15,450 nucleotides of DNA, from the NCBI GenBank assembly GCA_043822705.1, contig JBDRBK010000180.1, forward strand, positions 1-15,450, read 5' to 3'. Every line of letters begins with the position of its first letter. Positions within the stretch are counted from its first letter, which is position 1. This stretch comes from Fidelibacterota bacterium. GTDB taxonomy: Bacteria; Fidelibacterota; Marinisomatia; Marinisomatales; TCS56. Positions 1 through 15,450 of this stretch are shown piece by piece. Made by a program: the position numbers and the translations under genes. The notes under the pieces are model-generated. The model made no database searches, was not told the origin of the DNA, and saw only the letters and a list, made by a program, of their open reading frames with translations.

Positions 1-446
1 CCTTCAGCAAGGCCCGCGCCCTGGCCGGCGCCCGCCTGGGGATGGCATTTGCCCAGCCGGCGGTGATTGACCTGCTGAACCGGATCAAACCGCCGTATAA
101 CATCAACCAGTTGACCCAAAAAGCCGCCCTGGATTGTCTGGTGCAGACCGAGCGGTTCCGGACCCAGGTGGCGGAAATCGTGGAGGAACGGGGTAAATTA
201 AGTGCGGTGCTGGCGGGGCTGCCGCTGGTCACAAAGGTCTTTCCGTCGGCAGCTAATTTTGTACTAGTGCGGTTTCGTGATCCGTACCTGGTTTATCGCC
301 GACTGACTGAGCAGGGAACAATATTGCGGGACCGATCCGCCGCCGTAGCTGGCTGCCTGCGGATCACGGTCGGAACGCCCGCTGAAAATTTGAAATTAAT
401 CGAACAGCTAAAGCGGATCGAAAATGAAGAAAATCCTGTTTATTGA
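1..446 (+). CDS. hisC: Histidinol-phosphate aminotransferase, C-terminal part (5' truncated by the window edge)
   Basis: The frame is open from position 3 and reads [13 protein letters not shown], the PLP-lysine motif of class I/II aminotransferases. It continues with [14 protein letters not shown] and [12 protein letters not shown]. It lies directly upstream of hisB and overlaps it by 23 nt. Confidence 0.95.
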
Positions 447-1509
447 CCGCGACGGCACGATTATCAGCGAGCCGCCGGATGAACAAGTCGACAGCTTCGA
501 CAAGTTCCAATTCCTCCCTGGCGCCATCACCAACCTGGCCCGGATCGCCCGCGAGTTGGATTACCAACTGGTGCTGGTGACCAACCAGGACGGTCTCGGC
601 ACGGCCGCGTTTCCAGAGGATACCTTCTGGCCGGTGCAGAATAAAATGCTGGCAATTCTGGCCGGGGAAGGCGTGCGGTTTGCCGAAGTGCTGATCGACC
701 GCTCGTTTCCGGCCGACAACCGGCCCACCCGAAAACCGGGAATCGCCCTGCTGACGCACTACCTGCAGGGTGCTTACGATCTGGCTGCGTCTTTCACGAT
801 CGGCGATCGCGCCACCGATGTTGAACTGGCCCGCAACCTGGGCTGCCAGGCGATCCGGCTGGCCACCATACCGGATCCGAGCGCCGATTTTACCGCTGCC
901 GGCTGGGCGGAAATTTACCGGTATTTGCAGGGACAATCCCGCATCGGCCGGGTGGAGCGCCGGACCGGCGAAACAGCGATCACGGTTGAAGTCAATCTGG
1001 ATGGTTCCGGTCAATCACTAATCAGCACCGGGCTGGGATTTTTCGATCACATGCTGGAGCAACTGGCCCGCCACGGCAACCTGGACCTGACCGTCGATGT
1101 GAAGGGTGATTTGCAGGTCGACGAGCATCACACCGTGGAAGATACCGCCCTGGCCCTGGGGCAGGCCTTCGATCAGGCTCTGGGCAGCCGCAAAGGGATC
1201 GAACGTTACGGTTTTCTGCTGCCGATGGATGACTGCCTGGCCCAGGTGGCCATCGATTTCGGCGGCCGGCCCTGGCTGGAATGGACGGCTGAATTCAAAC
1301 GAGAAAAAATCGGCGACCTGCCCACGGAAATGTTCCGCCACTTTTTCAAATCATTCAGCGACGCTGCCCGCTGTAACCTGAATATTTCCGCCAGCGGCAC
1401 CAACGAACATCACAAGATCGAGGCCATTTTCAAGGCCTGGGCGCGGGCCATCAGAATGGCGGTCGCTAAAACCGGCGGCAACCTGCCCAGCACCAAGGGT
1501 GTGCTGTGA
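424..1509 (+). CDS. hisB: Bifunctional histidinol-phosphatase / imidazoleglycerol-phosphate dehydratase (HisNB fusion)
   Basis: N-terminal HAD domain (FIDRDGT, VTNQDG, RKP, IGDR). C-terminal IGPD domain ([40 protein letters not shown]). Confidence 0.97.
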
Positions 1510-2084
1510 TCGCGATCCTGAAATATAACGCCGGCAACATCCGTTCGGTGGCCAACGCTCTGAACCGGCTGGGGGTGGAATCGATCCTGACCGACGATCC
1601 GGACGTCCTGAACCGGGCCGATAAAGTGATTTTCCCCGGCGTGGGCGAAGCCGGCAGCGCCATGACCTACCTGCAAGCAAGGGGGCTGAATACGGTACTC
1701 AAACAATTGACGCAACCAGTCCTCGGAATCTGTCTGGGATTGCAGTTGCTGGGACGCCATTCCGAGGAAGGGGACACATCGGGTATCGGCATTTTCGCCG
1801 AACGGGTGCGGAAGTTCCCCCCCGGCGCCAAAGTGCCGCACATGGGCTGGAATAATTTCACTACCATCCGGGGCCCCCTTTTTGACGGCATCGCCGCGGA
1901 TGAGGACCTGTACTTCGTCCACAGCTACTACCTGGAAACCGGGCCCGACACGACCGCCGTCACCGAATATCAACTACCCTTCAGCGCCGCGGTGCAGAAG
2001 GATAATTTCCACGCCGTCCAGTTTCACCCGGAAAAATCGGCCGCCGTGGGTCAACGATTATTAAGGAATTTTCTGTCATTATGA
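1506..2084 (+). CDS. hisH: Imidazole glycerol phosphate synthase, glutamine amidotransferase subunit
   Basis: Motifs GNIRSV, FPGVG, GICLGLQ (catalytic Cys), VPHMGWN, YFVHSY and QFHPEKS. The GTG start overlaps the hisB stop (GTGA). Confidence 0.97.
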
Positions 2085-2797
2085 GAATCATCCCCGCCAT
2101 CGACATCATCGACGGCCAATGCGTACGCCTGACCCGGGGCGATTATGCCAGTAAAAAAGTGTACAACGCCGACCCGCTGGAAGTGGCCAAGTCCTACGAG
2201 GCGGCCGGAATCACCTGCCTGCACCTGGTGGACCTGGACGGCGCCCGCGACCGGCGGATCGTCAACTGGCCGGTGCTGGAAAAAATCGCGCGTAACACCG
2301 GACTGCAAATCGATTTCGGCGGCGGAATCAACAGCACCGAAGATTTAAGTATCGCCTTCGAAGCCGGCGCCCGGCAGGTCACCGGCGGCAGCGTAGCCGC
2401 CCGTAACCAGGAGCTGTTCCTGGAATGGCTGACAACCTTCGGTCCCGAAAAAATCATTCTGGGGGCCGACGCCCGAAACGGCCAAATCGCCACTGACGGC
2501 TGGCGCCGGTCCACGGCGATCGACCTGGTGGACTTCGTCGCCGGCTACCGGCAGCAGGGAATCGAATATGCAATCTGCACCGATATTGCCCGCGACGGCG
2601 CTTTCAGCGGCCCCGCCATGGAACTCTATCGCACTATCATAGCCCGGAGCCCGGGATTGAAACTGGTAGCCAGCGGCGGCATGACGACCATGACGGATAT
2701 TCGTGATCTGGAACCGCTCGGTGTGGATGGTGTCATCATCGGCAAGGCAATCTATGAAAACCGGATCACCCTAGCGGAATTGAGCGAATTATGCTGA
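2081..2797 (+). CDS. hisA: ProFAR isomerase
   Basis: Motifs [44 protein letters not shown] and [12 protein letters not shown] overlap with hisH. Confidence 0.97.
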
Positions 2798-3543
2798 AAA
2801 AAAGGATCATACCTTGCCTCGACATCCGTGACGGCCGGACGGTGAAAGGGGTAAATTTCGTCAATATCCGTGATGCCGGCGATCCGGTGGAACTGGCCCG
2901 CGCCTACGTGGACCAGGGTGCCGACGAACTGGTTTTCCTGGACATCACCGCCACCGTGGAGAAGCGGCGTACCTTCGCAACCCTTGTAGAACGGATCGCT
3001 CGTGAAATCGATATTCCGTTCACGGTGGGCGGCGGCATCAATTCCGTGGCCGATGTAGCCCGGCTGCTGGCGGCCGGCGCCGACAAGGTCAGCATCAATT
3101 CGGCGGCGGTGGCCCGGCCGGAACTGATCAACGAACTGGCCGGGCAATTCGGCCGGCAGTGCGTGGTGCTGGCGATCGACACCAATCTGGTTGGCGGCGA
3201 ATGGCTGGTGTACGTCCACGGCGGACGAACGGCCACAACGATTAAAACAATTGAATGGGCCACCGCAGCGGAAGCGCGCGGCGCCGGCGAGATTCTGCTC
3301 ACATCGATGGTCAATGACGGCACCAAGAACGGTTTCGCCATTGACATCACCAATCAGGTCTGCCGGGTGGTAAATATACCGGTGATCGCTTCCGGCGGCG
3401 CGGGCACCCCGGATCATTTCGCAGCCGTGTTCCGGCAAACCGGCGCCGACGCCGCCCTAGCGGCCAGTATCTTCCATTTCGGCGAAGTGCCGATTCCGGA
3501 TTTGAAAAATTACCTCAGAACTCAAAACATAGCAGTGCGATGA
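2791..3543 (+). CDS. hisF: Imidazole glycerol phosphate synthase, cyclase subunit
   Basis: Motifs [63 protein letters not shown] and ALAASIFH. Confidence 0.98.
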
Positions 3544-4124
3544 AAATAGATTTCGAAAAAATGAACGGCCTGGTACCGGCCATAGTGCAGGACAGTGTGA
3601 CCAATCAGGTGTTGATGGTGGGTTACATGAATCAGGCCGCCATCGATGAAACCCGGCGCAGCGGCAAAGTGACTTTTTACAGCCGCAGCAAGGGCCGGCT
3701 GTGGACCAAGGGTGAAACATCAGGTAATTATCTGCTGCTGAAGGATATTCTGGCCGACTGCGATGGTGATGCCCTGTTGGTAAAGGCCGAACCGCTGGGT
3801 CCCGTCTGTCACAGCGGCAGCGCCACCTGTTTCAATGAAAATTCCACCAGCGGCTTTCTCTACCGGCTGGAGCAGATCATCGCCGACCGGCAGCGGAACC
3901 CCACGCCAGAATCATACACCAGCAAACTGCTTTCCGCCGGGACCGGGAAAATCGCCCAAAAGGTTGGTGAAGAGGCGGTTGAACTGATTGTCGAGGCGTT
4001 GGGGGATAATGATGAATTGTTCGTCAATGAGGCCGCCGACCTGCTGTATCATTTACTGGTACTGCTGAATGACCGGGGGCTGCGGCTAGTCGATGTGGAA
4101 CGGGAATTACTGCGGCGGCACTGA
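3540..4124 (+). CDS. hisIE: Bifunctional phosphoribosyl-AMP cyclohydrolase / phosphoribosyl-ATP pyrophosphatase
   Basis: HisI motifs [25 protein letters not shown] and CHSGSATCF. HisE motifs [14 protein letters not shown] and [12 protein letters not shown] overlap with hisF. Confidence 0.97.
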
Positions 4125-5300
4125 TTATCGGGGAAATTTCAGACGTGCTATTTTAGTGTAAACCGACTGCGTAATTGACTGCTGGAACTTTGCTACTTCC
4201 CCTGGCTGGGGCGGACTGGCATGCCAGCGCTTTAATTGCTTTTCCGTCTTTTTAAATACCCAGTTCTGGATTTGATCGGTCTGCTGCTGCACATGGAGCA
4301 GGCGGGCGGCGTTGATGTATTCGGGGCGGGCGGTGTCGGGATAGACAAAGGCCTTCAATTCCTGAAAGACCAGATTCAGCGGTGCCCCACTGTCGCCATC
4401 CAGCAGTGACGGAACTTCACCGGCCAGAACCCACAACGGAATTGCTACTGAAACCGCCGGTTCGCCCAGGGTGATCCAGTAGGTAGTCAGGCACGGATCT
4501 TCGCCGTCCAAAACACTTTCGAAAATCGAACAGGATACGGTGCGGTGACGGTTCACCGTGCCACCGGTGGGGAACAGGGCCGTATCGGCCGCGGTGGGAT
4601 CGATCGTGGCAATATTGCGGGTCACGATAGAAACCAGGTAGGGCACCCTCAATTTTTTTATGGCCGCCCTGACATTGGCCAGGTCGACGGCATTTTTAAA
4701 GCGGCCGTGGCCGTAGGCCTCCTGGTTATAGCCGTGTTCGGCGAAATTGGCGCGGGCCATAAATCCGCTGGGGCAGACCGCTTCATCGCCGGCATCGAAC
4801 CGGAAATACTCGTGGTTGCCGGTCTCGAAAAAGGTCGCCGTACCGGCGGCGTCGATGACGCCGAAATTGCTGGTGACACCGCGACCGGCCAGATCGGTCT
4901 GCTGCAACAATTCTTCAAAATCGGCCACCGACCTGCACTGCAACAGGGCCGCTTTTATGAAATAGCCTTCTTCGTCATAAACCGTAGCCTCATTGGGCCG
5001 GGCCATATCCCGGGCTTCGGCATTCATGACGGCGAAACCGAAATTGTTGACGCCGGCCCAGATCTGGGTGGTGTCGTCAGCATTTATCACGCCGATCAAC
5101 TGGAATTCACCGCGATCCAGAAACACCATTTCATTGTTGCGGAAACTGGAGTCGCGATTCTTCCAGAGCAGGCAGCGACCGTCGGGCGTGGCCTTGCCGG
5201 CAGCCAGTCCGGTGGTGCAGGCAGCAGCCGGGATTAATTGCAGGACAAAAATTACCGACAGGATATAAAAGCTGTTGCTGCGAATGGACCGGATCATCAA
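4125..5300 (-). CDS. Secreted N-terminal-nucleophile (Cys) hydrolase, C45/C69-like (acyltransferase/carcinine hydrolase-like); substrate unknown
   Basis: A signal peptide ending AAA is followed by CTTGLAAGKATPDGRCLLWKNRD, typical of the Cys-Ntn hydrolase N-terminus. Also WAGVNNFGFAVMN and NFGVID. AAGGA lies upstream of TTG(5300)/ATG(5297), so the start is ambiguous. Confidence 0.75.
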   Translation of the reverse strand: MMIRSIRSNSFYILSVIFVLQLIPAAACTTGLAAGKATPDGRCLLWKNRDSSFRNNEMVFLDRGEFQLIGVINADDTTQIWAGVNNFGFAVMNAEARDMARPNEATVYDEEGYFIKAALLQCRSVADFEELLQQTDLAGRGVTSNFGVIDAAGTATFFETGNHEYFRFDAGDEAVCPSGFMARANFAEHGYNQEAYGHGRFKNAVDLANVRAAIKKLRVPYLVSIVTRNIATIDPTAADTALFPTGGTVNRHRTVSCSIFESVLDGEDPCLTTYWITLGEPAVSVAIPLWVLAGEVPSLLDGDSGAPLNLVFQELKAFVYPDTARPEYINAARLLHVQQQTDQIQNWVFKKTEKQLKRWHASPPQPGEVAKFQQSITQSVYTKIARLKFPR

Positions 5301-5390
5301 TCAAATTCCTTGAATAGCGGTTGGTGGCGGTTTCGAATGGCAGAAAATTACATTGAATTGGATGAATCAAAAAACCAACTATAGCCACAG

Positions 5391-7669
5391 TCAAACCAGC
5401 AGGTTCAGGGCGCCGCCGATGCGGTAAACGGCAAAGGCCAGCAGCCAGGCCAGCGTCAGCGAATAGAATATGGAAAAAAGGTATAGCCCCAGCTACCGGT
5501 TTCGCGGCGGATCACCGCCACCGTCGCCAGGCAGGGCGTGTACAACAGGGTAAACACCAGAAAGGCCAGGGCCACCAGGGGCGTCATGCCGGAGTGCCGC
5601 AGGCTGGCGATGATGCCGCGGCTTTCTGCCGTGGCGTCGGCGCCGACGCCAAACAGTACACCGTAGGTAGATACCACAATTTCTTTGGCGACGAAGCCGG
5701 TTACCAGGGCCACGCTTTCACGCCAGGAAAAACCCAGCGGCGCCAGCACCGGTTCAATTGTTTTCCCCAGCCGACCGATCCATTTCCGCTCCATCGTTTC
5801 CGCCATTCGCTGGTAGCGCAAGTGTTCCAATAATGAATCACGATCAGCGATTATATTTTCATGCAGCTCCGATTTTTTCTCTCGCAGCAGCTGGTATTCA
5901 CCGCTCTCCTCAAAGGGGACCAGAACCGATTGATAATGCTGGCGCGCGGCAGCCAGGGACTGTGCGAAACGTGACTCAATTTCCGCTTGCCCGGCTAATG
6001 ACTGCTGCTGAATTCCGGCGGCGATGGTGTTGTAATCTCTGGACAACACAACATCCTGCGGGAAATACCCCAGGGCCCAGATCAGGATCGAGCCGCTGAG
6101 GATCACCGTGCCCATCTTGCGGATGAAAATGATGCCACGCTCCCCGGTATGCAGCAATAGCGAGCGGGCCGTGGGCAACTGGTAGGGTGGCAATTCCATG
6201 ACGAATGGCTGAGATTGCCCGGCCAGAATCGTCCGGCTGAAGATTCGCCCCGAACCAATGGCCACCAGGATTCCCAGGGCGTACATGGCGAAAATGATCG
6301 TGCCGGCCTGTTGCGGAAAGAACGCCCCCGCTACCAGCACATAAACCGGGAAGCGGGCCGAACAGCTCATAAACGGATTGATCAGAATCGACAGAATCCG
6401 GTCGCGGCGGGTCTCCAGAATCCGCGTGCCCATGATTGCCGGCACATTACAGCCGAATCCCATAATCATGGGCACGAAAGCTTTGCCGTGGAGTCCCAGC
6501 GAATGCATCACCCGGTCCATGATGAAAGCCACTCGGGCCATGTAACCGCTGTCCTCCAGCAGGGCGATGATGAAAAACAAAATGAAGATATTAGGCAGAA
6601 AAACGGCAATCGCCCCCACGCCGCCGATGGCGCCGTCCACGATTAAGCTGGTCAGCATACCGGACGGCAGCAGCGTCGTTAATGCTGACATGAGCCAGGC
6701 TACCCCGGCGTCGATCCAGCCCATGGGGTAGGCGCCCACCGAATAGGTCAGCTGGAACATCAGCCACAGCATGGCGCCGAAGAACGGCAGCCCCAGCCAT
6801 TTGTGCGTCAGCACTTTATCGATTCGGCGGCTGTAATCAACGGGCGCAACCTGCGTCTCGCGCAGGCACTCCCGCAGGGCGCCCTGCACAAACGCATAAC
6901 GCGCCTTACTGATGATAGCCCGGCTGGTGTCGCCGTAGATCGCCTCGATCCGTTCGGAAGCAGCGGCGATCTGCTCCAATAGTGGACCCGCCCCCTCGAT
7001 ATTTTGCAGTTTCGCGGTGGATGTTTTGTCCCGTTCCAGCAGCTTAACGGCGCGCCAGCGTTGACGCCCGCGGGCCTCACCCAATCGTTCCAGCTCGGTA
7101 CTGATTTTATCGATTTCATCCTCAACTTCGCGGGGATAGGGAATCTGCAGCCGACGTTTTTCCCGAGCGCCGTCAGCCACCCGGGCGATCATTTTCTTCA
7201 GCTCGGGAATGCCCGCACCAGTGCGTCCCACCACCTTTACCACCGGCGCTCCCAGCAGGATTCCCAGCGTTTCGGCATCGATCTGGTAGCCTTTTTCGTC
7301 GGCCATATCCATCATGTTCAGCACTACCACCAGCGGCGCGCCCAGTTCAATCAACTGGGTCGTCAGATAGAGGTTGCGGCTAAGGTTGGAGGCATCCAGG
7401 ATATTGACCACCACATCGGGATGCTCGTCGATGATATAGGATCGTGCTATCGTTTCTTCAATCGAATAGGAGGCCAGCGAGTAGGTGCCCGGCAGATCGA
7501 CCACATTATAGGAAACCCGGTCATGGATCAAACGACCCTCTTTGCGCTCGACCGTCACGCCGGGCCAGTTGCCCACATGCTGATGGGCGCCGGTGAGGGC
7601 ATTGAAAAGCGTTGTTTTGCCGCTGTTGGGATTGCCGGCCAGGGCGATATTTTTACCGTAATCGTTCAA
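5391..7669 (-). CDS. feoB: Ferrous iron transporter FeoB, with an apparent 1-nt deletion frameshift at 5474-5479 (as sequenced, the ORF stops at 5456)
   Basis: GTPase motifs [21 protein letters not shown] and NMMD. Membrane motifs [30 protein letters not shown] and LYTPC. The typical final TM helix ([20 protein letters not shown]) is in the shifted frame, ending TGA at 5391. The TTG start overlaps the feoA stop (TTGA). Confidence 0.95.
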
Positions 7670-7965
7670 TTACCGATTCGTTCCACAGTGATTTTTTCGG
7701 CGTCGCGGACCCGTAGCACCAGATGATAACCTTTTAAAATTATTTCAATCGGGTCCTGTAGCGGGGCATACTTGCTGACTTCGATCGTTTCACCAGCCAG
7801 CAGTCCCATCTCCATCAATCGGATGCGGAAATGCTCGCTGCCGCCCACTTCCACAATCCGGGCGTGGTCACCGGCCTGCAAGTCGCTGAGGCAGAGCGCC
7901 CCGGGCTGCCAGTGCCGCCGACGGCGCTGGCGACTGAAGCCAAAACCGAAATTTCCAAATCGCAT
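7666..7965 (-). CDS. feoA: FeoA SH3-like protein with a basic/aromatic N-terminal extension
   Basis: [15 protein letters not shown]...[10 protein letters not shown]...[23 protein letters not shown] is the FeoA signature. Coupled to feoB. The exact start is uncertain. Confidence 0.9.
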
Positions 7966-7981
7966 TGCCGTGAACCTGCGG

Positions 7982-9808
7982 TTACAGATCGATAATCAGG
8001 ATTTGCTTACGGCCGTCGCGCAGCACTTCCACGCTGATCCGCTGCCCGACCTTGAATTCGGCCAGGCGGTGCATATATTCGTAAATGTCGCCCACCGGTC
8101 GCCCTTCCATGGCAACGATGATATCGCCCTTCCGGATTCCCGCCAAGGCTGCCGGCCGGTTAGGCATCACCAGATCCACCCGCATCCCGGTGATTCCAAC
8201 AGCAGCATGGTCGGGCATTACACCCAGTGATACTTTGAACCGGCGCCGGTAGCTATCACGGGTTTTTGGTCCCGCCTCCTGGAATACCAAAGTGGTCGGC
8301 CGGTCGGCAATTTCCCCGGCCAGATCGGCAATAAAATCGGCGATCTGTTTTTCGCCGGCATAGTTCAGAAATTCGGCGTCATCGGCCGGGGTGTGATAGC
8401 GGTCGTGGGCGCCGGTGAAAAAGAACAGCACCGGAATATCCTTGGAGTAAAACGCGGCATGATCGGAGGGACCGTAGCCTTCCGGTGAAAGGCTGGTCCG
8501 CAGTCCGTGGCACTCGGCTTGGGCCACTAATATATCCTGCAGACCGGCGGCGGTGCCGGTGCCCCCGACACTGATTACGACGGTATCAAGACTAGCGTTA
8601 CCCAGCATGTCCAGATTGAACATGGCGGTAATTCGGTCCAGCGGGACCGGTGGCTCATTGGTAAATTGCTTGGATCCCAGCAGACCCATTTCCTCGGCCG
8701 CGAAGGCGGCGAACACGATGCTGCGTTTCAGCGGCGGACGTCTCTTCGCCAGAACACTGGCGATCTCCAACAGGGCCGCCACTCCGGAGGCATTATCGTC
8801 GGCGCCATTGTGAATGGCGCTGGTATCCGGCCGCCGCGAACCGGAACCCGGTCCGCCCATTCCCAGATGATCGTAGTGCGCACCCAGCACGATAAATTCA
8901 TCCTTCAGGACCGGATCGCTGCCCGGCAGGATGGCCAGCACGTTTTGTGTTCTCGCCTCGGTTTTGACGATTTCGGCCCAGGCCGTCAGATCAGTACCCA
9001 AGTCGAAAGCGGCCAGTGACTGCCCGTCATTTAATTTTTGTTCCAGTTCGGCCACCGTTACACCCCGTAGCGCCAGCAGGCTGTCAGCCAGCGACCGGGT
9101 GATCTGCAGGACCGGCAACCCCAATGATCGCTGTTGGCCCTCGTAATACAGGTCGATCAGCTCATCATTTTCGTCGAACACCGGGCCGGAGACGAAAATT
9201 ACACCGGCGGCGCCCCGGTCGCGGGCGCTGAGCGCCTTGTCGCGCAGGGAACTGAACGGCAGATAGGGACTGTCGGAATTGTCCGGTTCAGGGTCGCCGC
9301 GCAGTAGCAGCACCCAGCGCCCGCTGACATCGACCGCTTCGTAGTCCCTGCGGGTCAGGCTGTCGGTGCTGAAATCGAATCCGTATCCGGCAAAGGTAAC
9401 GTCGGCCACCAGCTCGGCGTTTTCACTGAAGGCCAGGGAAGTAAAATTCTCACCAGCCCGGCCCACGATATTACCAAAAGTCAGATAATTGTTAGCCCCT
9501 GGCGTAAGTGCTGTCACGACCTGAAACGGTTGAAAACCAGCCTGCGCCAGTGGTTCGAGCCCGGCTGCATCGAATTGCCGCCGGATATACTCCGCCGCCA
9601 GTTTGTCGCCGGCACTGCCCGGTTTGCGACCCTGCAACGCATCACTGGCCAGGTAGGTCACGTGTTCCTGCAAACGCTTGCCTGAAATGCCGCCCGGTTT
9701 CGTCTGCGGCAGCGGCAAACAGGAACAGGTCAGCAGGCCGGCCAGACCTGCGGTTAATAAAAATCGTGAATAATGTCTTTGAAATAATATTCTGGTTGCG
9801 GCGCTCAT
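7982..9808 (-). CDS. M28 family zinc aminopeptidase with PA and C-terminal PDZ domains, probable lipoprotein
   Basis: M28 motifs YLASDALQGR, GAHYDHLG, NGADDNASG, FAAEEMGLLGS, NLDMLG, SDH and YHTPADD. PA insert (FAGYG...DY..VDV.GR.VL). PDZ (LGVMPD...PAALAGIRKGDII). Hydrophobic N-terminus ending LLTCSC. Confidence 0.9.
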   Translation of the reverse strand: MSAATRILFQRHYSRFLLTAGLAGLLTCSCLPLPQTKPGGISGKRLQEHVTYLASDALQGRKPGSAGDKLAAEYIRRQFDAAGLEPLAQAGFQPFQVVTALTPGANNYLTFGNIVGRAGENFTSLAFSENAELVADVTFAGYGFDFSTDSLTRRDYEAVDVSGRWVLLLRGDPEPDNSDSPYLPFSSLRDKALSARDRGAAGVIFVSGPVFDENDELIDLYYEGQQRSLGLPVLQITRSLADSLLALRGVTVAELEQKLNDGQSLAAFDLGTDLTAWAEIVKTEARTQNVLAILPGSDPVLKDEFIVLGAHYDHLGMGGPGSGSRRPDTSAIHNGADDNASGVAALLEIASVLAKRRPPLKRSIVFAAFAAEEMGLLGSKQFTNEPPVPLDRITAMFNLDMLGNASLDTVVISVGGTGTAAGLQDILVAQAECHGLRTSLSPEGYGPSDHAAFYSKDIPVLFFFTGAHDRYHTPADDAEFLNYAGEKQIADFIADLAGEIADRPTTLVFQEAGPKTRDSYRRRFKVSLGVMPDHAAVGITGMRVDLVMPNRPAALAGIRKGDIIVAMEGRPVGDIYEYMHRLAEFKVGQRISVEVLRDGRKQILIIDL

Positions 9809-9883
9809 AGCTGATACTTCCGAAATAATCCGTCCACGTTGGTCCTCAATTTAACCGGCAGCGGCATGACTAACAATCGTAAA

Positions 9884-9898
9884 TGAGACCTGGTCTCA
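9884..9898. promoter_or_regulatory. Perfect 7-1-7 palindrome TGAGACC-T-GGTCTCA, candidate repressor operator
   Basis: The inverted repeat is directly visible, with A/T-rich flanks. It lies just downstream of a putative promoter and upstream of the peptidase-feoA-feoB genes. Confidence 0.55.
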
Positions 9899-9910
9899 AA
9901 ATAGCCTGGT

Positions 9911-9942
9911 CAAATGTAAATCAGGATTTCCTTATCCGACAA
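9911..9942 (-). promoter_or_regulatory. Putative promoter for the M28 peptidase-feoAB unit
   Basis: TTGTCG-18 nt-TACATT(TG) on the - strand. The downstream element also fits TAnnTTTG. Confidence 0.45.
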
Positions 9943-9947
9943 TCGTT

Positions 9948-10874
9948 TTATCGGGCGGGTTGATTTTCGTTCAGGTAGGCCAGCTCGGTAATCGAGAAAC
10001 GCCGGGGGGAGATGCCGCAGGAGCGCCACGGTTCGTCGGCCGGACAGGTGTTGCCGGCCAGCAGCATTTCCAATTGGTCGCGGCTGATGGGGAATCCCGG
10101 CCAGCGGGCCAGGAGTTTCAGCGGTCCGGCCGGCACCGGTACCAGCCATTTGCAGCGACCGGTGGCGGCGGCGATCAGCCGCAGGATTTCTTTCCAGGAA
10201 ACGGTATCCGGTCCGCCAATTTCAATTATCCGCCGCCAGAGACCCGGTTGTTCCAGTAATTTCACCAGCACTTGTGCCAGATCAACGGCATGCACCGGCG
10301 AAAAGCGAAAAGCGCCGGCCCGACAGGGATTCCAACCGGAATAAAACAGCGGCGCCGGCAGGGACGGACGAATCAGTTGTCGGTACAGCTGGGTGACGAA
10401 TTCCATCTGGCCGCGGGGCGGACCATAAATGACCGACGGCCGCAAAATCAACCACTCAAGGTCGGTAGCGCGCAGATATTCCTCGGCCCGGTACTTGGTG
10501 GTTTGGTAGGCCGTTCCGTCGGGCTTGACGCCATTGGCGCTCATCAATAGCATACGGCCGGTACCCTCCGCCCTGGCAGCGTCGATCGCCCGGCAAGCGC
10601 CATTGAAATGCGCTTCCTCGAAGGTGATCCCGCGGGTTGGAAATTCCCGGAGCAATCCAGTCAGGTACACCCCCACCGGGCAGCCGCGCAGCACCTGGCG
10701 CAAGGCCTCCGAATCGGCAATTGAGCCGCTAACTAAATCACATTCGGCTGCCCGCCGGACTTTGGCAACACTGCCCGGTCGTACCAGCAGAACAGGCCGG
10801 TGCCCGACCGTCAGCAGTGCTTCCACCAGATATTGCCCGACAAAACCGGTACCGCCAATAATTCCAATTCGCAT
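9948..10874 (-). CDS. NAD(P)-binding atypical SDR, complex I NDUFA9-like / epimerase-dehydratase family
   Basis: Rossmann motif IIGGTGFVG, plus MSANG, YQTTK (YxxxK), ILRPSVIYG, PVHAVDLA and EIGGPD. Good SD (GGAGG) upstream of the ATG. Confidence 0.85.
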   Translation of the reverse strand: MRIGIIGGTGFVGQYLVEALLTVGHRPVLLVRPGSVAKVRRAAECDLVSGSIADSEALRQVLRGCPVGVYLTGLLREFPTRGITFEEAHFNGACRAIDAARAEGTGRMLLMSANGVKPDGTAYQTTKYRAEEYLRATDLEWLILRPSVIYGPPRGQMEFVTQLYRQLIRPSLPAPLFYSGWNPCRAGAFRFSPVHAVDLAQVLVKLLEQPGLWRRIIEIGGPDTVSWKEILRLIAAATGRCKWLVPVPAGPLKLLARWPGFPISRDQLEMLLAGNTCPADEPWRSCGISPRRFSITELAYLNENQPAR

Positions 10875-10964
10875 AGCGCCTCCGTAAAAGAATTGAACGT
10901 CCCCGAATATAAGCTGTACCGGGATATAAAAGTTACCGGGGATACCGGCTCGAATGAACGGCAG

Positions 10965-11516
10965 CTACAAGTGGGTTATCAGAATTCGCAGACCGATCAG
11001 GATCAGGATCAGACCGCTAAACAATTCGAATTTCTTGCCGAAGACCTGCTCGGTTTTCCGGCCCAGGTAAATACCCAAAATCGAGAACAGCATCGCCACG
11101 ATCCCGATGATAACGCTGGGATACATAATCCGGATCTGAATCACCGACAGGGTCAGACCGATTGCCAGGGCATCGATGCTAGTGGCGACGGACAGGGCCA
11201 GCAGCGACCAACCCCGGGAAATATCACGATCAAACTGCTCGGTCACTTGAAAGGATTCATAAATCATTTTGCCGCCTATAAGTGACAACAGTCCGAAGGC
11301 AATCCAGTGGTCGATGTTTTCCATATACCCTATGATGGTATTGCCCGCCAGCCAGCCCAGCACCGGCATCAGAAACTGGAACAGGCCGAAATGCCAGCTC
11401 AAGCGAAACACATGGCGGTAAGTAAGCGGGCGGATCGTGGCGCCGGCCACCACCGATACCGCAAAGGCATCCATGGCCAGGCTGACGGCAATTCCCAATA
11501 TGGTAATAGTATTCAT
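10965..11516 (-). CDS. mntP: Manganese efflux pump MntP
   Basis: Motifs SLAMDAFAVS, FGLFQFLMPVLGW, DHWIAFGLL..IGGKMI and ATSIDALAIG. The start is re-assigned to ATG 11516 (MNTITILG, 183 aa), matching the usual family length. Confidence 0.93.
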   Translation of the reverse strand: MNTITILGIAVSLAMDAFAVSVVAGATIRPLTYRHVFRLSWHFGLFQFLMPVLGWLAGNTIIGYMENIDHWIAFGLLSLIGGKMIYESFQVTEQFDRDISRGWSLLALSVATSIDALAIGLTLSVIQIRIMYPSVIIGIVAMLFSILGIYLGRKTEQVFGKKFELFSGLILILIGLRILITHL

Positions 11517-11529
11517 GGCAGAAGGACTG

Positions 11530-11560
11530 AAATTAGGCCGTCCGTCCTGAAAAACGGCAA
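11530..11560 (-). promoter_or_regulatory. Possible mntP promoter
   Basis: TTGCCG-19 nt-TAATTT on the - strand, 13 nt before the mntP ATG. The spacing is long. Confidence 0.25.
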
Positions 11561-11562
11561 CC

Positions 11563-11587
11563 AAAATGGCCGGGCACGGTACCGGCC
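11563..11587 (-). terminator. Possible weak intrinsic terminator after proA
   Basis: GGCCGG-8 nt-CCGGCC followed by ATTTT on the - strand, 7 nt after the proA stop. Confidence 0.35.
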
Positions 11588-11594
11588 GCTGCTG

Positions 11595-12854
11595 TTATTC
11601 CCGAACCTGGCCGCTACCACGCACTACAAATTTTGTCGTCGTCAGCTCGCGCAGACCCATGGGACCGAAAGAGTGGAGTTTGGTGGTGCTGATGCCGATC
11701 TCGGCCCCCAGCCCCAGCTGGCCGCCGTCGTTGAAGCGGGTCGATGCGTTGACCATGATCGCCGAACTGTCCAGGCTGCGAACGAAACGCTCCTGGTTCT
11801 CCGGCGATTCGCTGACGATCGCCTCGGTGTGATCGCTGGAATAGCGCTGGATATGCTCGATGGCCGCGGCGATGTCGTCCACCACCCGCAACGCCAACAC
11901 CAGGTCCAGGAATTCGGTGTCATAATCATCTTCCGTGGCCGGTTTAACGGCGGCTGAGTAGGTCTGGGTCTCGGCGCAACCACGAATTTCCACACCGGCG
12001 GCGGTAAGTTGCTCGATCAGCGCTGGCAACAGGGTCGGGGCGGTCTGGCGGTGCACCAGGACGGTTTCAGCGGCATTGCAGACACCGGGTCGCGGCACTT
12101 TGCTGTTCAAGACGATCGCCAGGGCCTTGGCGGCATCGGCCGGGTAATCGATATAGACATGGCAGTTGCCCTTGTAGTGGGCAATGACCGGCACGGTCGC
12201 GACGCTTTTCACGCGCCGGATCAAACCCTCGCCGCCACGAGGGATGATCACGTCCAGGCAGTCATCCAGGCGGGCCATGATGTCGACCGATTCACGGTCG
12301 GTGACCGGAATCATGTTGATTACATCAGCCAGTTCCTGGTCCCCCAGCACCTGCCGCATCAGATCGACCAGCGCCCGGTTGGAGTGGAAGGCTTCCGAGC
12401 CGCCCCGCAGCAGCAGACCATTACCGGCAAAGAAGCACAACGCCGCCGCTTCCACCGTCACATTCGGGCGCGACTCGTAAATCACGCCGATAACGCCCAG
12501 AGGAATCCGCCGCTTCTGCACCTGCAGGCCGTTGGGCCGGGTCCACTGTTCTGCAATTTCACCAACGGGGTCGGGCAGGGCGGCCACTTCCCGGACGCCG
12601 GCCGCCATCTCGGCGATGCGCTGGTCGTTCAGGGTCAGGCGATCGATCATCGCCGCCGCCATTCCCTGTTGGCGGGCCGCTGTCAAATCAAGCTTGTTGG
12701 CAGCGATTATTTCCGCTTGATGCTGTTCCAGTCGCTCGGCTATCTGCATCAGAATTAATTGTTTTTGCATGGTTGTCAGGGTCGGCAGAATCCGGCTAGC
12801 GGATTTAGTCGCCCGGCCCAGGGCATGGATACTGGCAGTCAAATTATCGTTCAT
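11595..12854 (-). CDS. proA: Gamma-glutamyl phosphate reductase
   Basis: Motifs PLGVIGVIYESRPNVT, LRGGSEA, IIPRGG, GNCHVY, CNAAET (catalytic Cys), HTEAI, VNASTRFNDG and GAEIGISTTKLH..GPMGL. ATGA overlap with proB. Confidence 0.98.
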   Translation of the reverse strand: MNDNLTASIHALGRATKSASRILPTLTTMQKQLILMQIAERLEQHQAEIIAANKLDLTAARQQGMAAAMIDRLTLNDQRIAEMAAGVREVAALPDPVGEIAEQWTRPNGLQVQKRRIPLGVIGVIYESRPNVTVEAAALCFFAGNGLLLRGGSEAFHSNRALVDLMRQVLGDQELADVINMIPVTDRESVDIMARLDDCLDVIIPRGGEGLIRRVKSVATVPVIAHYKGNCHVYIDYPADAAKALAIVLNSKVPRPGVCNAAETVLVHRQTAPTLLPALIEQLTAAGVEIRGCAETQTYSAAVKPATEDDYDTEFLDLVLALRVVDDIAAAIEHIQRYSSDHTEAIVSESPENQERFVRSLDSSAIMVNASTRFNDGGQLGLGAEIGISTTKLHSFGPMGLRELTTTKFVVRGSGQVRE

Positions 12855-14050
12855 TTTACCTCCGTGGTTATGACCAGGTTATCGCGATGAATCACACCCC
12901 GTTTATAGTGGAAACCCAAAATGCGCTCGATGGCGGAAGAGTGCTGGCCGGCGATTTTAGTGACTTCATCACTGCCGTATTCGACAATGCCGCGGGCCAC
13001 CTCGGTGCCATCCTCCAGACAGCAGCGGATGCCATCGCCCCGTTGAAACTGTCCCCGGGTAGCCAGTACGCCGGACGCCAGCAGGCTGACCTTCTTCTGC
13101 GTCAGAGCCCGCGCCGCCCCGCGGTCGATCACCACCGCCGCCTGTGGTCGCATGGCGTGCGCCAAGTAGGCCTTCCAGGAATTCAGTCGTTCGGTTGTGG
13201 GTACGATCAGCGTTCCAAGCGGTTCGCCGGCCAGCAGACGCAACAGGATATCCGGTGTACGGCTGTTGGCGATCACCGACGGTACGCCGTACTGGGCGGC
13301 CATCAGCGGCGCCTCGAGTTTGGTTGCCAGTCCGCCCCGGCCCAGCCCACCACTGCCGTTTTTACCGTTGCGGGTTGCCGCCAACAGGTCTTTTTTAATA
13401 TCCTGCAGTTGCTCGACAGTCAGTTTCTCGTAGGTTCGGGCAGCGGGATTCAACTTCGGATCCGCATCGGCAATTCCGTCAATGTCAGAAAGTATAATCA
13501 ACTGATCGACCGTAATCAATTTGGTACACAGGGCCGCCAGAAAATCATTGTCGCTGAAACGAATCTCTTCGGTGCAAACCGTATCATTCTCGTTGATGAT
13601 CGGCAGCACCCGACGGCTGATCAATTTCTTGATCGTATTGCGCGTATTCAGATAACGACGCCGGTTATTCAAATCGTCACCGGTCAGCAACAACTGGGCG
13701 ATCGGCAGGTTGTACTGCTCCAGCGCCTGCTGGATGATTCCCATCAGCAGCGGTTGGCCCACGGCGGCCGCGGCCTGTTGACTGACGACAGTGGAACCCA
13801 GTCCGCTCAGTATCTGGCGACCCGTGGCCACGGCGCCACTGAGGACCAGAATCACCGTCAGGCCCTGCTGGTGCAACCGGGCCACCTGTCCGGTCAGGGA
13901 ATTTATCTGTTCCCGGTCCAGCCGTCCATCGGGATGGCAGATACTGGAGCTACCGACCTTGACGACGATACGCGCCAGTTTCTGGAACTCGGGCCGTCCG
14001 GACACGACCATCCCGGCTGTGGTAGAATTGATATCCTGTATTTGTCTCAT
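12851..14050 (-). CDS. proB: Glutamate 5-kinase with C-terminal PUA domain
   Basis: Motifs IVVKVGSS, SGAV, AAAAVGQ, AQLLLT, PIINENDTV, DND and GGLATK. PUA domain (IDRGA..AL...SLLASGV...G.F.RGD, IHRDNL). Confidence 0.96.
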   Translation of the reverse strand: MRQIQDINSTTAGMVVSGRPEFQKLARIVVKVGSSSICHPDGRLDREQINSLTGQVARLHQQGLTVILVLSGAVATGRQILSGLGSTVVSQQAAAAVGQPLLMGIIQQALEQYNLPIAQLLLTGDDLNNRRRYLNTRNTIKKLISRRVLPIINENDTVCTEEIRFSDNDFLAALCTKLITVDQLIILSDIDGIADADPKLNPAARTYEKLTVEQLQDIKKDLLAATRNGKNGSGGLGRGGLATKLEAPLMAAQYGVPSVIANSRTPDILLRLLAGEPLGTLIVPTTERLNSWKAYLAHAMRPQAAVVIDRGAARALTQKKVSLLASGVLATRGQFQRGDGIRCCLEDGTEVARGIVEYGSDEVTKIAGQHSSAIERILGFHYKRGVIHRDNLVITTEVK

Positions 14051-14066
14051 GGTTTATTTTCCAAAC

Positions 14067-14096
14067 AAAAAAGCCCCCGGGAGACCCGGGGGCTTT
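14067..14096 (-). terminator. Strong intrinsic terminator (attenuator 3:4) ending 16 nt upstream of the proB start
   Basis: AAAGCCCCCGGG-TCT-CCCGGGGGCTTTTTT on the - strand, a perfect GC-rich stem followed by U6. Confidence 0.9.
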
Positions 14097-14121
14097 CAAA
14101 TTGATTCTTTTCAGGAAAAGA

Positions 14122-14196
14122 TTAGACGAAGCCGGCGGACCTCCTGCGGTTCAGGAAGCTGCGAGGGGTATGATCATATCGGCTGCGTCGCATCAT
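14122..14196 (-). CDS. Putative leader peptide MMRRSRYDHTPRSFLNRRRSAGFV (24 aa, 7 Arg)
   Basis: ATG ATG ... TAA, below the ORF-track size cutoff. Its last codons are the 5' strand of the antiterminator and its stop is 25 nt from the terminator. There is no SD, so it is possibly near-leaderless. Confidence 0.55.
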   Translation of the reverse strand: MMRRSRYDHTPRSFLNRRRSAGFV

Positions 14197-14204
14197 AATG
14201 GCGC

Positions 14205-14236
14205 CGAACTTAGGATCGGACCGGCGCCACTGGCAA
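14205..14236 (-). promoter_or_regulatory. Putative promoter of the leader-proBA transcript
   Basis: TTGCCA-18 nt-TAAGTT(CG) on the - strand, the same geometry as the element at 9911-9942. The predicted start site is around 14199. Confidence 0.45.
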
Positions 14237-14271
14237 CAATCAAATGTAAAAATATAAACCCACAGAATAAT

Positions 14272-15450
14272 TCAGGTAATATTCACTATTTCCAGCATCT
14301 GCTGGTAATCCTTCAGGAAGCGCCGGCGGATTTCGGCATTTTCCGGCCGGCGGAGATGGGGGTCCTCCGCCACCAGTCCGAAGGCTGCCTGCCGCGCCTC
14401 CCGGATCAGCGGTCCGTCGGTGACCATATCGGCGATTTTATATTTCACGAACCCGCTCTGCCGGGCACCGTAAAATTCCCCGGGGCCGCGCATTTTTAAA
14501 TCCTCGTCGGATATTTCAAACCCATCGCCGGTTCGCTCCATGATCGCCAGCCGCCGGCATGAATTATCGGTCGTGTTGCGCCGCACTAGGATACAATAGC
14601 TTTTGTCGCTGCCACGCCCCACCCGGCCGCGCAACTGGTGCAGCTGGGTCAGGCCGAAACGTTCGGCGTGTTCGATCAGCATGACCGTGGCGTTAGGCAC
14701 GTCGATGCCGACTTCGATCACCGTGGTGGAAACGATCACCTGGATTTCGTTGCGCTCGAAGGCATCCATTACGGCGTCCTTTTCCTCTTTTTTCAGGCGG
14801 CCGTGGATCAAACCAACGATCAGGTTCGGAAAAACGGTTCGGGATAATTCTTCGAAGGCCTCGGTAGCCGCCGCCAGATCGGATTTTTCGGTTTCTTCCA
14901 CCAGCGGATACACCACCATGCACTGGCGTCCCCGCCCGACTTCCTCGCTGATGAAATCATACACTTTGGGCAGCCGCTCCGGTTCGACGACCCTGGTAGT
15001 CACCGGAATCCGGTCTTTGGGCATTTCATCAATGATCGAAAGATCCATGTCGCCGTGGTAGGTAATCGCCAGGGTCCGGGGGATCGGCGTGGCCGTCATT
15101 GCCAGCAGGTGCGGATTCAGTCCCTTGGCCGTCAGATCGCCGCGCTGCAGTACGCCAAAGCGGTGCTGCTCGTCGACAATTACCAGACCAAGCGCTGCGA
15201 ATTCCACATCCTTCTGGATCAGGGCGTGGGTGCCGACGACAATATCGATCCGGCCGGCCAGCAACCCGGCGAGCAGTTTGCGGCGTTCGCCGGCCTTCTG
15301 GTTGCCCACCAGCAGGGCGCAGGTCATCCTGGCCGCATCGGCGTACTTTTTAAACGAGCGGTAATGCTGGTGCGCCAGAATCTCGGTGGGCGCCATCACC
15401 GCCACCTGCAGCCCGTTGCCCACCGCAATCGCCGCCGCCAGCACCGCCAC
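14272..15450 (-). CDS. recG: ATP-dependent DNA helicase RecG, C-terminal part (5' truncated by the window edge)
   Basis: Motifs MAPTEILAHQH, VVGTHALIQ, DEQHRFGV, MTATPIPRTL, HGR, STTVIEVGIDVPNA, ERFGLTQLHQLRGRVGRG and the TRG motif DGFEISDEDLKMRGPGE. Confidence 0.98.
   Translation of the reverse strand: MAVLAAAIAVGNGLQVAVMAPTEILAHQHYRSFKKYADAARMTCALLVGNQKAGERRKLLAGLLAGRIDIVVGTHALIQKDVEFAALGLVIVDEQHRFGVLQRGDLTAKGLNPHLLAMTATPIPRTLAITYHGDMDLSIIDEMPKDRIPVTTRVVEPERLPKVYDFISEEVGRGRQCMVVYPLVEETEKSDLAAATEAFEELSRTVFPNLIVGLIHGRLKKEEKDAVMDAFERNEIQVIVSTTVIEVGIDVPNATVMLIEHAERFGLTQLHQLRGRVGRGSDKSYCILVRRNTTDNSCRRLAIMERTGDGFEISDEDLKMRGPGEFYGARQSGFVKYKIADMVTDGPLIREARQAAFGLVAEDPHLRRPENAEIRRRFLKDYQQMLEIVNIT

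Follow-up and report, generated by a model that had tools for sequence, protein, structure and literature searches.

An arginine-rich leader and terminator upstream of proBA in a Fidelibacterota genome: a candidate attenuator and a possible proBA-based entry to arginine synthesis

Classical attenuators that work through a leader peptide include trpL, hisL, pheL, thrL, leuL and ilv, and actinobacterial cases have reportedly been described as well (PMC1262725). N-acylation of glutamate is regarded as the bacterial means of separating arginine synthesis from proline synthesis. Here we describe a 24-codon open reading frame (ORF) rich in Arg codons and an intrinsic terminator that together precede proB and proA in a 15,450-nucleotide (nt) stretch of DNA from a Fidelibacterota bacterium (the window; assembly GCA_043822705.1, contig JBDRBK010000180.1, positions 1 to 15,450). 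Taken jointly, we regard it as reasonably probable that this leader is an Arg-sensing attenuator and that proBA feeds ornithine and arginine synthesis. The parts of the GapMind reports that were available cover acetyl, succinyl and alternative arginine and ornithine enzymes and hold no proBA-based route (PMC7311316, PMC13759103). Prokaryotic ornithine aminotransferase (OAT) has been described as degradative (PMC5372011, section 5.1.1), and a proline-to-arginine route running PutA-RocD-ArcB1-ArgG-ArgH is reported for Staphylococcus aureus (PMC9239276). The literature searched, mostly titles and abstract openings with few subscription journals and no supplements, contained no Arg-codon attenuator and no bacterial proBA-based arginine route.

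On the minus strand of the window, the order is recG, the leader ORF, the terminator, proB, proA and a mntP-like gene. Re-derivation of the leader ORF (14122..14196, minus strand, as are the features that follow) agreed with the preliminary description in that 7 of the 24 codons are Arg (codons 3, 4, 6, 12, 17, 18 and 19) and one, codon 11, is Pro. Against the caveat raised there, that Arg codons arise by chance in GC-rich DNA, Arg exceeds stop-free dinucleotide shuffles (7 versus 3.3 expected, p=0.019) and is also in excess across 35 leaders of the same family. The other two frames of the leader region hold 0 and 3 Arg. Of the 1333 intergenic ORFs in its own genome that start with ATG and have 18-30 codons, 3 reach the Arg share of the leader. 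The threefold Arg-Ser pattern noted earlier is present in this leader but is not a trait of the family, three copies being found in 2 of 33 leaders.

The terminator hairpin and its U tract (14065..14097), the presumed attenuator, come after the leader ORF; the stem (14097-14069), 28 nt from the leader stop, has 13 pairs, 9 of them G-C, and a U tail. A predicted antiterminator strand (14127..14142), spanning leader codons 19-23, can pair with the 5' arm of the terminator, and the leader region as a whole folds with z=-4.3. Upstream, a predicted sigma70-type -35 hexamer (14231..14236; 5/6 to consensus) and a predicted -10 hexamer (14207..14212; 10 nt upstream of the leader ATG) were located by comparison among leaders, a stricter consensus promoter scan not having listed this promoter. 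Because the -10-like hexamer lies near the ATG and no Shine-Dalgarno (SD)-like motif is present, the proBA transcript is likely to be nearly leaderless, starting a few bases before the leader ATG. An Rfam search of the leader gave 23 weak matches and no T-box, riboswitch or leader family at gathering score.

Scanning the window's genome (G000) for a short ORF and terminator before genes gave 24 leader-terminator candidates, the two most Arg-rich of which precede proB (7 of 24 codons) and argG (5 of 23 codons); the terminators of these two are near-identical. The hisG leader, on contig C138, has 21 codons with 4 His and no Arg run, then a terminator, and the leader (G000 C179:17112-17189) before a pheA-tyrA-like operon has 25 codons with 6 Phe or Tyr, again followed by a terminator. 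Leaders rich in cognate codons therefore exist in this organism. A tRNA-Pro(TGG) gene (L027:4842-4919, minus strand) lies divergently just 5' of the argG leader in this genome.

To place the leader in a family, proB and argG loci were mapped across 301 sampled genomes from the phylum, mostly drafts. Among argG, proB and hisG operon heads, 39 carry a terminator, and in 35 of these the terminator is preceded by an ATG ORF of 21-27 codons (one trimmed to an inner ATG) whose end is 26-44 nt away, under a stop-to-terminator spacing rule of 24-45 nt that was fixed after inspecting the loci. Heads with a terminator and no such ORF were those of proB in G180 and G253, hisG in G030 and argG in G165; 2 of the 35 leaders head his operons with a broken argG. 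Across the 35 leaders, which come from 7 families, Arg makes up 192 of 806 codons versus 93 expected (2.1-fold), with 39 and 63 of 771 in the other frames, and every leader contains tandem Arg. The Arg columns of the leader alignments are kept via synonymous changes in orthologous and paralogous leaders alike, which bears out the conservation that the preliminary description had looked for. Peptide identity between families is 20% overall and 13% outside Arg, and 5-19 codons separate the end of the longest Arg run from the stop. Of the 35 leaders, 32 have a -10-like hexamer 6-14 nt upstream of the ATG (27% in shuffles), and 34 have no SD-like motif. All 5 leaders of intact his-argG-argH-proB-proA operons combine tandem Arg with 3-5 His codons, and a stand-alone proBA with an Arg-rich leader occurs in 4 genomes from 2 families (G000, its closest relative G004, G198 and G237).

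Some further observations concern the composition of these leaders. Asn codons are about 2-fold enriched in the 35 leaders (83 versus 42), and in 25 of 33 a tandem Arg has an Asn among the three codons that precede it; an unstructured A-rich spacer or a nitrogen-status input might account for the enrichment. In two his operons (L270 and L271, in G025 and G010), the trailing argG is broken by stop codons and the leaders hold 4-5 His and 3 Arg, compared with 3 His and 6 Arg in the G034 leader, where argGH is intact. A LysW cluster with two lysX paralogues (L472, G034:C157) is headed, near 580, by a terminator and, ahead of that, a 28-codon ORF that includes 4 Arg and 4 Lys codons, a candidate dual Lys/Arg leader.

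Of the 301 genomes, 39 yielded ArgR; the window's genome did not, and neither did any member of f8, f10, f13, f21 and f23, families that carry leaders. No matching leader was seen ahead of argR-headed operons, which have an ARG-box-like palindrome in common; G004 has both systems, with argR before argGH and a leader before proBA. A search for ARG boxes before stand-alone proB found none, the best score being 5.1 versus 12.6-19.7 before argR genes, although the motif was trained on these 16 argR promoters, whose scores are high by construction. An ArgR regulon for proBA was rejected, no argR gene having been found in the genome and no ARG box before the operon.

A folding model with a ribosome mask was used to assess the switch. 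A ribosome positioned anywhere from codon 1 to codon 16 leaves the antiterminator free (pairing 0.6-0.7), antiterminator pairing falls at codons 17 and 18 (0.5 and 0.3), and it is lost at codons 19-22 and at the stop. Arg 3, 4, 6 and 12 as well as Pro11 can therefore signal, and Arg 17-19 mostly cannot. This simple model reproduces the geometry proposed in the preliminary description, where stalling at Pro11 or Arg12 frees the antiterminator and stalling at 17-19 partly masks it. The terminator 5' arm finds its best partner in the last ORF codons in all 35 leaders; the model often lacks a strong 1:2 protector hairpin. When Arg is plentiful, the ribosome would reach the last codons or the stop and mask the antiterminator strand, so that the terminator would form. 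When Arg is scarce, a stall at Arg 3, 4, 6 or 12 would leave the antiterminator to pair with the terminator 5' arm and proBA would be read, and the single Pro codon may add a weaker proline input. It is highly probable that leader and terminator form a ribosome-coupled attenuator that reads charged tRNA-Arg. The enrichment in cognate codons, the terminator position and the synonymous conservation all point to membership of the attenuator class. With the Arg codons kept in related leaders, the earlier suggestion of control via Arg-tRNA charging gains in strength, and an arginine attenuator appears to be favoured.

The genes under this putative control encode a glutamate 5-kinase with a PUA domain (proB, 12851..14050, minus strand; TIGR01027, 372 bits versus a cut-off of 186) and a gamma-glutamyl phosphate reductase (proA, 11595..12854, minus strand; TIGR00407, 448 bits versus a cut-off of 317). 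Residues of the ProB glutamate-binding loop are retained, and since this loop is normal, free glutamate is the likely substrate; in the ProB alignment, no residue change around the glutamate/proline site separates arg-linked ProBs from the others. ProB and ProA would make glutamate-5-semialdehyde, which an omega-aminotransferase would convert to ornithine, and ArgF, ArgG and ArgH would pull the ornithine onward to arginine. The best candidate for the transaminase step is an OAT-like gene on contig C13.

The use of proBA as an entry to arginine synthesis, first raised in the preliminary description, is supported by operon structure across the phylum. In the sample, proB lies with argG/argH at 32 of 55 phylum loci versus 0 of 96 distant loci, and with proC at 5 of 55. 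Of 7 close metagenome loci, 5 read argG-argH-proB-proA, and in the remaining 2 the upstream DNA is missing. The linked genes are found in three orders: argG-argH-proB-proA, proB-proA-argG-argH and, in one genus, argR-argG-argH-aminotransferase-proB-proA. In a quick tree, the link between proB and argGH appears in three separate, well-supported ProB clades, and 18 of the 21 members of the clade that holds the window's ProB are in argGH-type operons. In sister families, acetyl-type or LysW modules occupy the slot of proBA in the operon. At the level of whole genomes, argG is present in 55 of 56 proB genomes and argC is lacking in 44 of 56, such that 43 genomes have proB and argG and no argC. These data suggest that proBA probably feeds ornithine.

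The window's genome, which is 93% complete and 6% contaminated, has argG, argH, argF, carA, carB and the OAT-like gene. At this completeness, the genome yielded no argB, argC/lysY, argJ, lysX, lysW, argR, ornithine cyclodeaminase or proC. A full acetylated pathway would have spoken against the proposal; neither the acetyl nor the LysW ornithine route was found, argA not having been searched separately. Besides being absent from the window, as described earlier, proC was not found in the rest of the genome. Since 41 of the 56 proB genomes carry proC, G004 among them, an assembly gap may explain why it is missing here. For the same reason proBA most likely still serves proline too.

The nearest solved structures to the C13 OAT-like gene are mostly OATs. 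Members of this subfamily (~370 bits) and a lysine 6-transaminase (L376) share the slot before rsmI in different genomes, which suggests that omega-aminotransferases may be interchangeable. In the genus g80 (L233, L237, L238, L245 and L248), a divergent ArgD-like aminotransferase of ~495 amino acids (aa), with an N-terminal extension of ~100 residues and scores below all NCBIfam cut-offs, lies between argH and proB; among candidates for an enzyme dedicated to turning the semialdehyde into ornithine, it ranks first. In G080, which has proBA and no argC match, what looked like an OAT between argG and argH (L362, G080:C44) was rejected as a broken aminotransferase fragment; the operon concerned is argR-argG-argH-carA. 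The window's genome also has two near-identical loci, on C10 and C155, where a class III aminotransferase of 444 aa accompanies a DUF6206 gene, possibly a duplication or a strain mixture.

Several observations weigh against an arginine-sensing leader that controls an ornithine-producing proBA. The genomes are related, so all of the counts above are non-independent. Three of the seven Arg codons (17-19) sit where stalling masks the antiterminator, and the antiterminator duplex is stronger than in shuffles at p<0.05 for only 12 of the 35 leaders, with p=0.32 for the proBA leader itself. Stand-alone proBA of families f25-f27 lacks both a leader and an ARG-box-like site. Regarding the pathway, argC/lysY is present in 12 of the 56 proB genomes (8 LysW clusters and 4 other), where another ornithine route is therefore possible, and 18 genomes have argG and neither proB nor argC. 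OAT-type matches occur in 25 of 56 proB genomes and 145 of 301 overall, are not co-distributed with proB, and appear in many genomes without arg genes. The C13 gene (G000 C13:30186-31532) scores 372.7 bits, just below the cut-off of 378.4, and adjoins lysine-catabolism genes; in G178 the slot preceding rsmI holds lysine 6-transaminase. That enzyme is the only class III aminotransferase found (E<=1e-30) in G075 and G178, which are 2 of the 5 checked genomes with proB and argG and without OAT. The OAT equilibrium is given as favouring ornithine breakdown, with K 50-70 (PMC5372011), and the prevalence of proC described above belongs here also. A fungal lysine 6-transaminase is stated to accept ornithine (PMC9854754), and it is possible that lysine 6-transaminase acts as the ornithine-forming enzyme in G075 and G178.

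Alternatively, the attenuator may sense arginine while proBA makes only proline, or while semialdehyde reaches ornithine by an unrecognised step. In this case, the link to argGH would be a matter of amino-acid gene clustering, and the leader would have been copied when proBA left an argGH operon. The frequency of proC in proB genomes, the fusion of his genes into the same operons, the nesting of the window's ProB in a clade where argGH operons prevail and the lack of any transaminase that tracks proB are all compatible with such a history, and a proline dehydrogenase is present, so proline could also supply semialdehyde. However, proC is mostly outside the operon, stand-alone proBA retains an Arg-rich leader in all four genomes named above, one genus has an argR-headed operon with an aminotransferase between argH and proB, and argC is missing from 43 genomes that carry proB and argG. 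We consider this explanation unlikely, though it is the strongest of the rival explanations.

Proline could instead be what the leader chiefly senses, through Pro11, with the Arg codons a by-product of G+C-rich stems. Pro11 is within the sensitive zone, and proBA of Bacillus subtilis is reported to be under T-box control by Pro (PMC9245794). A Pro codon between codon 10 and six before the stop was found in 19 of 21 proBA-containing units versus 2 of 12 argG-only units, a comparison in which the codon window was chosen post hoc and the argG-only set represents few lineages. Across the 35 leaders, however, Pro is below expectation (40 versus 59) and Arg is doubled against composition-matched shuffles; leaders of the same build without Pro precede argG, 1 of 2 held-out argGH-proBA leaders has no Pro, and the sensitive zone of the proBA leader contains one Pro versus four Arg codons. 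Sensing of proline as the chief function is thus very unlikely. The Pro codon may be a second input, giving dual Arg/Pro sensing; given the post-hoc window, the few argG-only lineages and the held-out leader without Pro, this is a lead only.

Arrest peptides such as SpeFL, TnaC and the fungal arginine attenuator peptide raise the possibility that free arginine or ornithine stalls the ribosome near the stop and so promotes termination. A stall from codon 19 to the stop would keep the antiterminator masked, Arg 17-19 are placed in that region, and the Asn enrichment might belong to such a peptide. The peptide sequence is not conserved between families, however, particularly outside Arg, and the Arg run has no fixed distance to the stop. 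Leaders of the same build with His, Phe/Tyr or mixed His and Arg codons point to codon sensing rather than arrest, and an arrest peptide seems slightly less probable even than proline sensing. Least probable of all is an untranslated chance ORF before a constitutive or otherwise controlled terminator, which the lack of an SD-like motif and the modest single-leader p value would allow, but which does not explain why length, stop-terminator spacing, promoter position and frame-specific Arg excess recur in 35 leaders.

Downstream of proA, a mntP-like gene (10965..11516, minus strand) follows in the same order as in G004; a weak terminator-like hairpin (11587-11568) separates the two, and the gene is probably outside the pathway. 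At the other end of the window, a his operon running from the end of hisC to hisIE (1-4124, plus strand) continues contig C138 (G000 C138:3428-6455). Next to it is a 391-aa ORF (4125-5300, minus strand) that gave 0 Pfam or NCBIfam matches and is also found downstream of feoB in G004; its N-terminal cysteine after a signal-like segment is, we presume, reminiscent of Ntn hydrolases.

Extended beyond this genome, the arginine-sensing leader and the ornithine-feeding proBA lead to a broader proposal. Much of Marinimicrobia, the phylum that NCBI now lists as Fidelibacterota, would build arginine de novo without acylation, through ProB, ProA and an omega-aminotransferase, and so have a fourth bacterial route to ornithine in addition to those that use acetyl, succinyl or LysW intermediates. 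In place of ArgR, modular leaders would sum Arg, His and Pro codons to match the genes of each operon. For this proposal as a whole, we see the arguments for and against as evenly balanced. If true, bacteria can use an animal-type shortcut as a main arginine route, auxotrophy calls would change for an abundant uncultured phylum (genomes with argG that lack argB/argC), and pathway tools would gain a route to add. The leaders would also provide naturally varied attenuators, some with one input and some with mixed inputs, for an amino acid that had no attenuator in the literature searched.

Compared with the classical attenuators, the proBA leader has the same parts, a short cognate-codon ORF, a predicted antiterminator overlapping the ORF end and a terminator before the first gene, and the family resembles them in having multivalent leaders on mixed operons. 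It differs in that arginine would be sensed, proBA controlled and the transcript is predicted to be nearly leaderless, and in that no Rfam family matches at gathering score (the His leader reaches 24.7 versus 49 bits). The proBA T-box of B. subtilis, as described in the text available, likewise couples tRNA charging to proBA through a terminator switch, but its RNA reads tRNA-Pro, whereas here the leader ORF is rich in Arg codons (PMC9245794). Operons repressed by ArgR/AhrC and equipped with acetyl, succinyl or LysW ornithine modules, which occur in sister families, share the argF, argG, argH and carAB steps; unlike them, the window's genome yielded no argB, argC, argJ, lysW/lysX or argR. The S. 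aureus route is alike in that a bacterial OAT runs from P5C to ornithine to feed ArgG and ArgH; in the account consulted it differs in drawing on imported proline, in that labelled glutamate does not enter arginine, and in having acetyl genes and CcpA/AhrC control (PMC9239276). In the proposed route, semialdehyde would come from glutamate via ProBA, and acetyl genes were not found in the window's genome. A further counterpart is the mammalian intestinal P5CS-OAT route, which as outlined in PMC5372011 also leads from glutamate through semialdehyde to ornithine without N-acylation and with a carbamoyltransferase pull; the route proposed here differs in being bacterial, in its separate ProB and ProA and in having a transaminase that is a candidate only.

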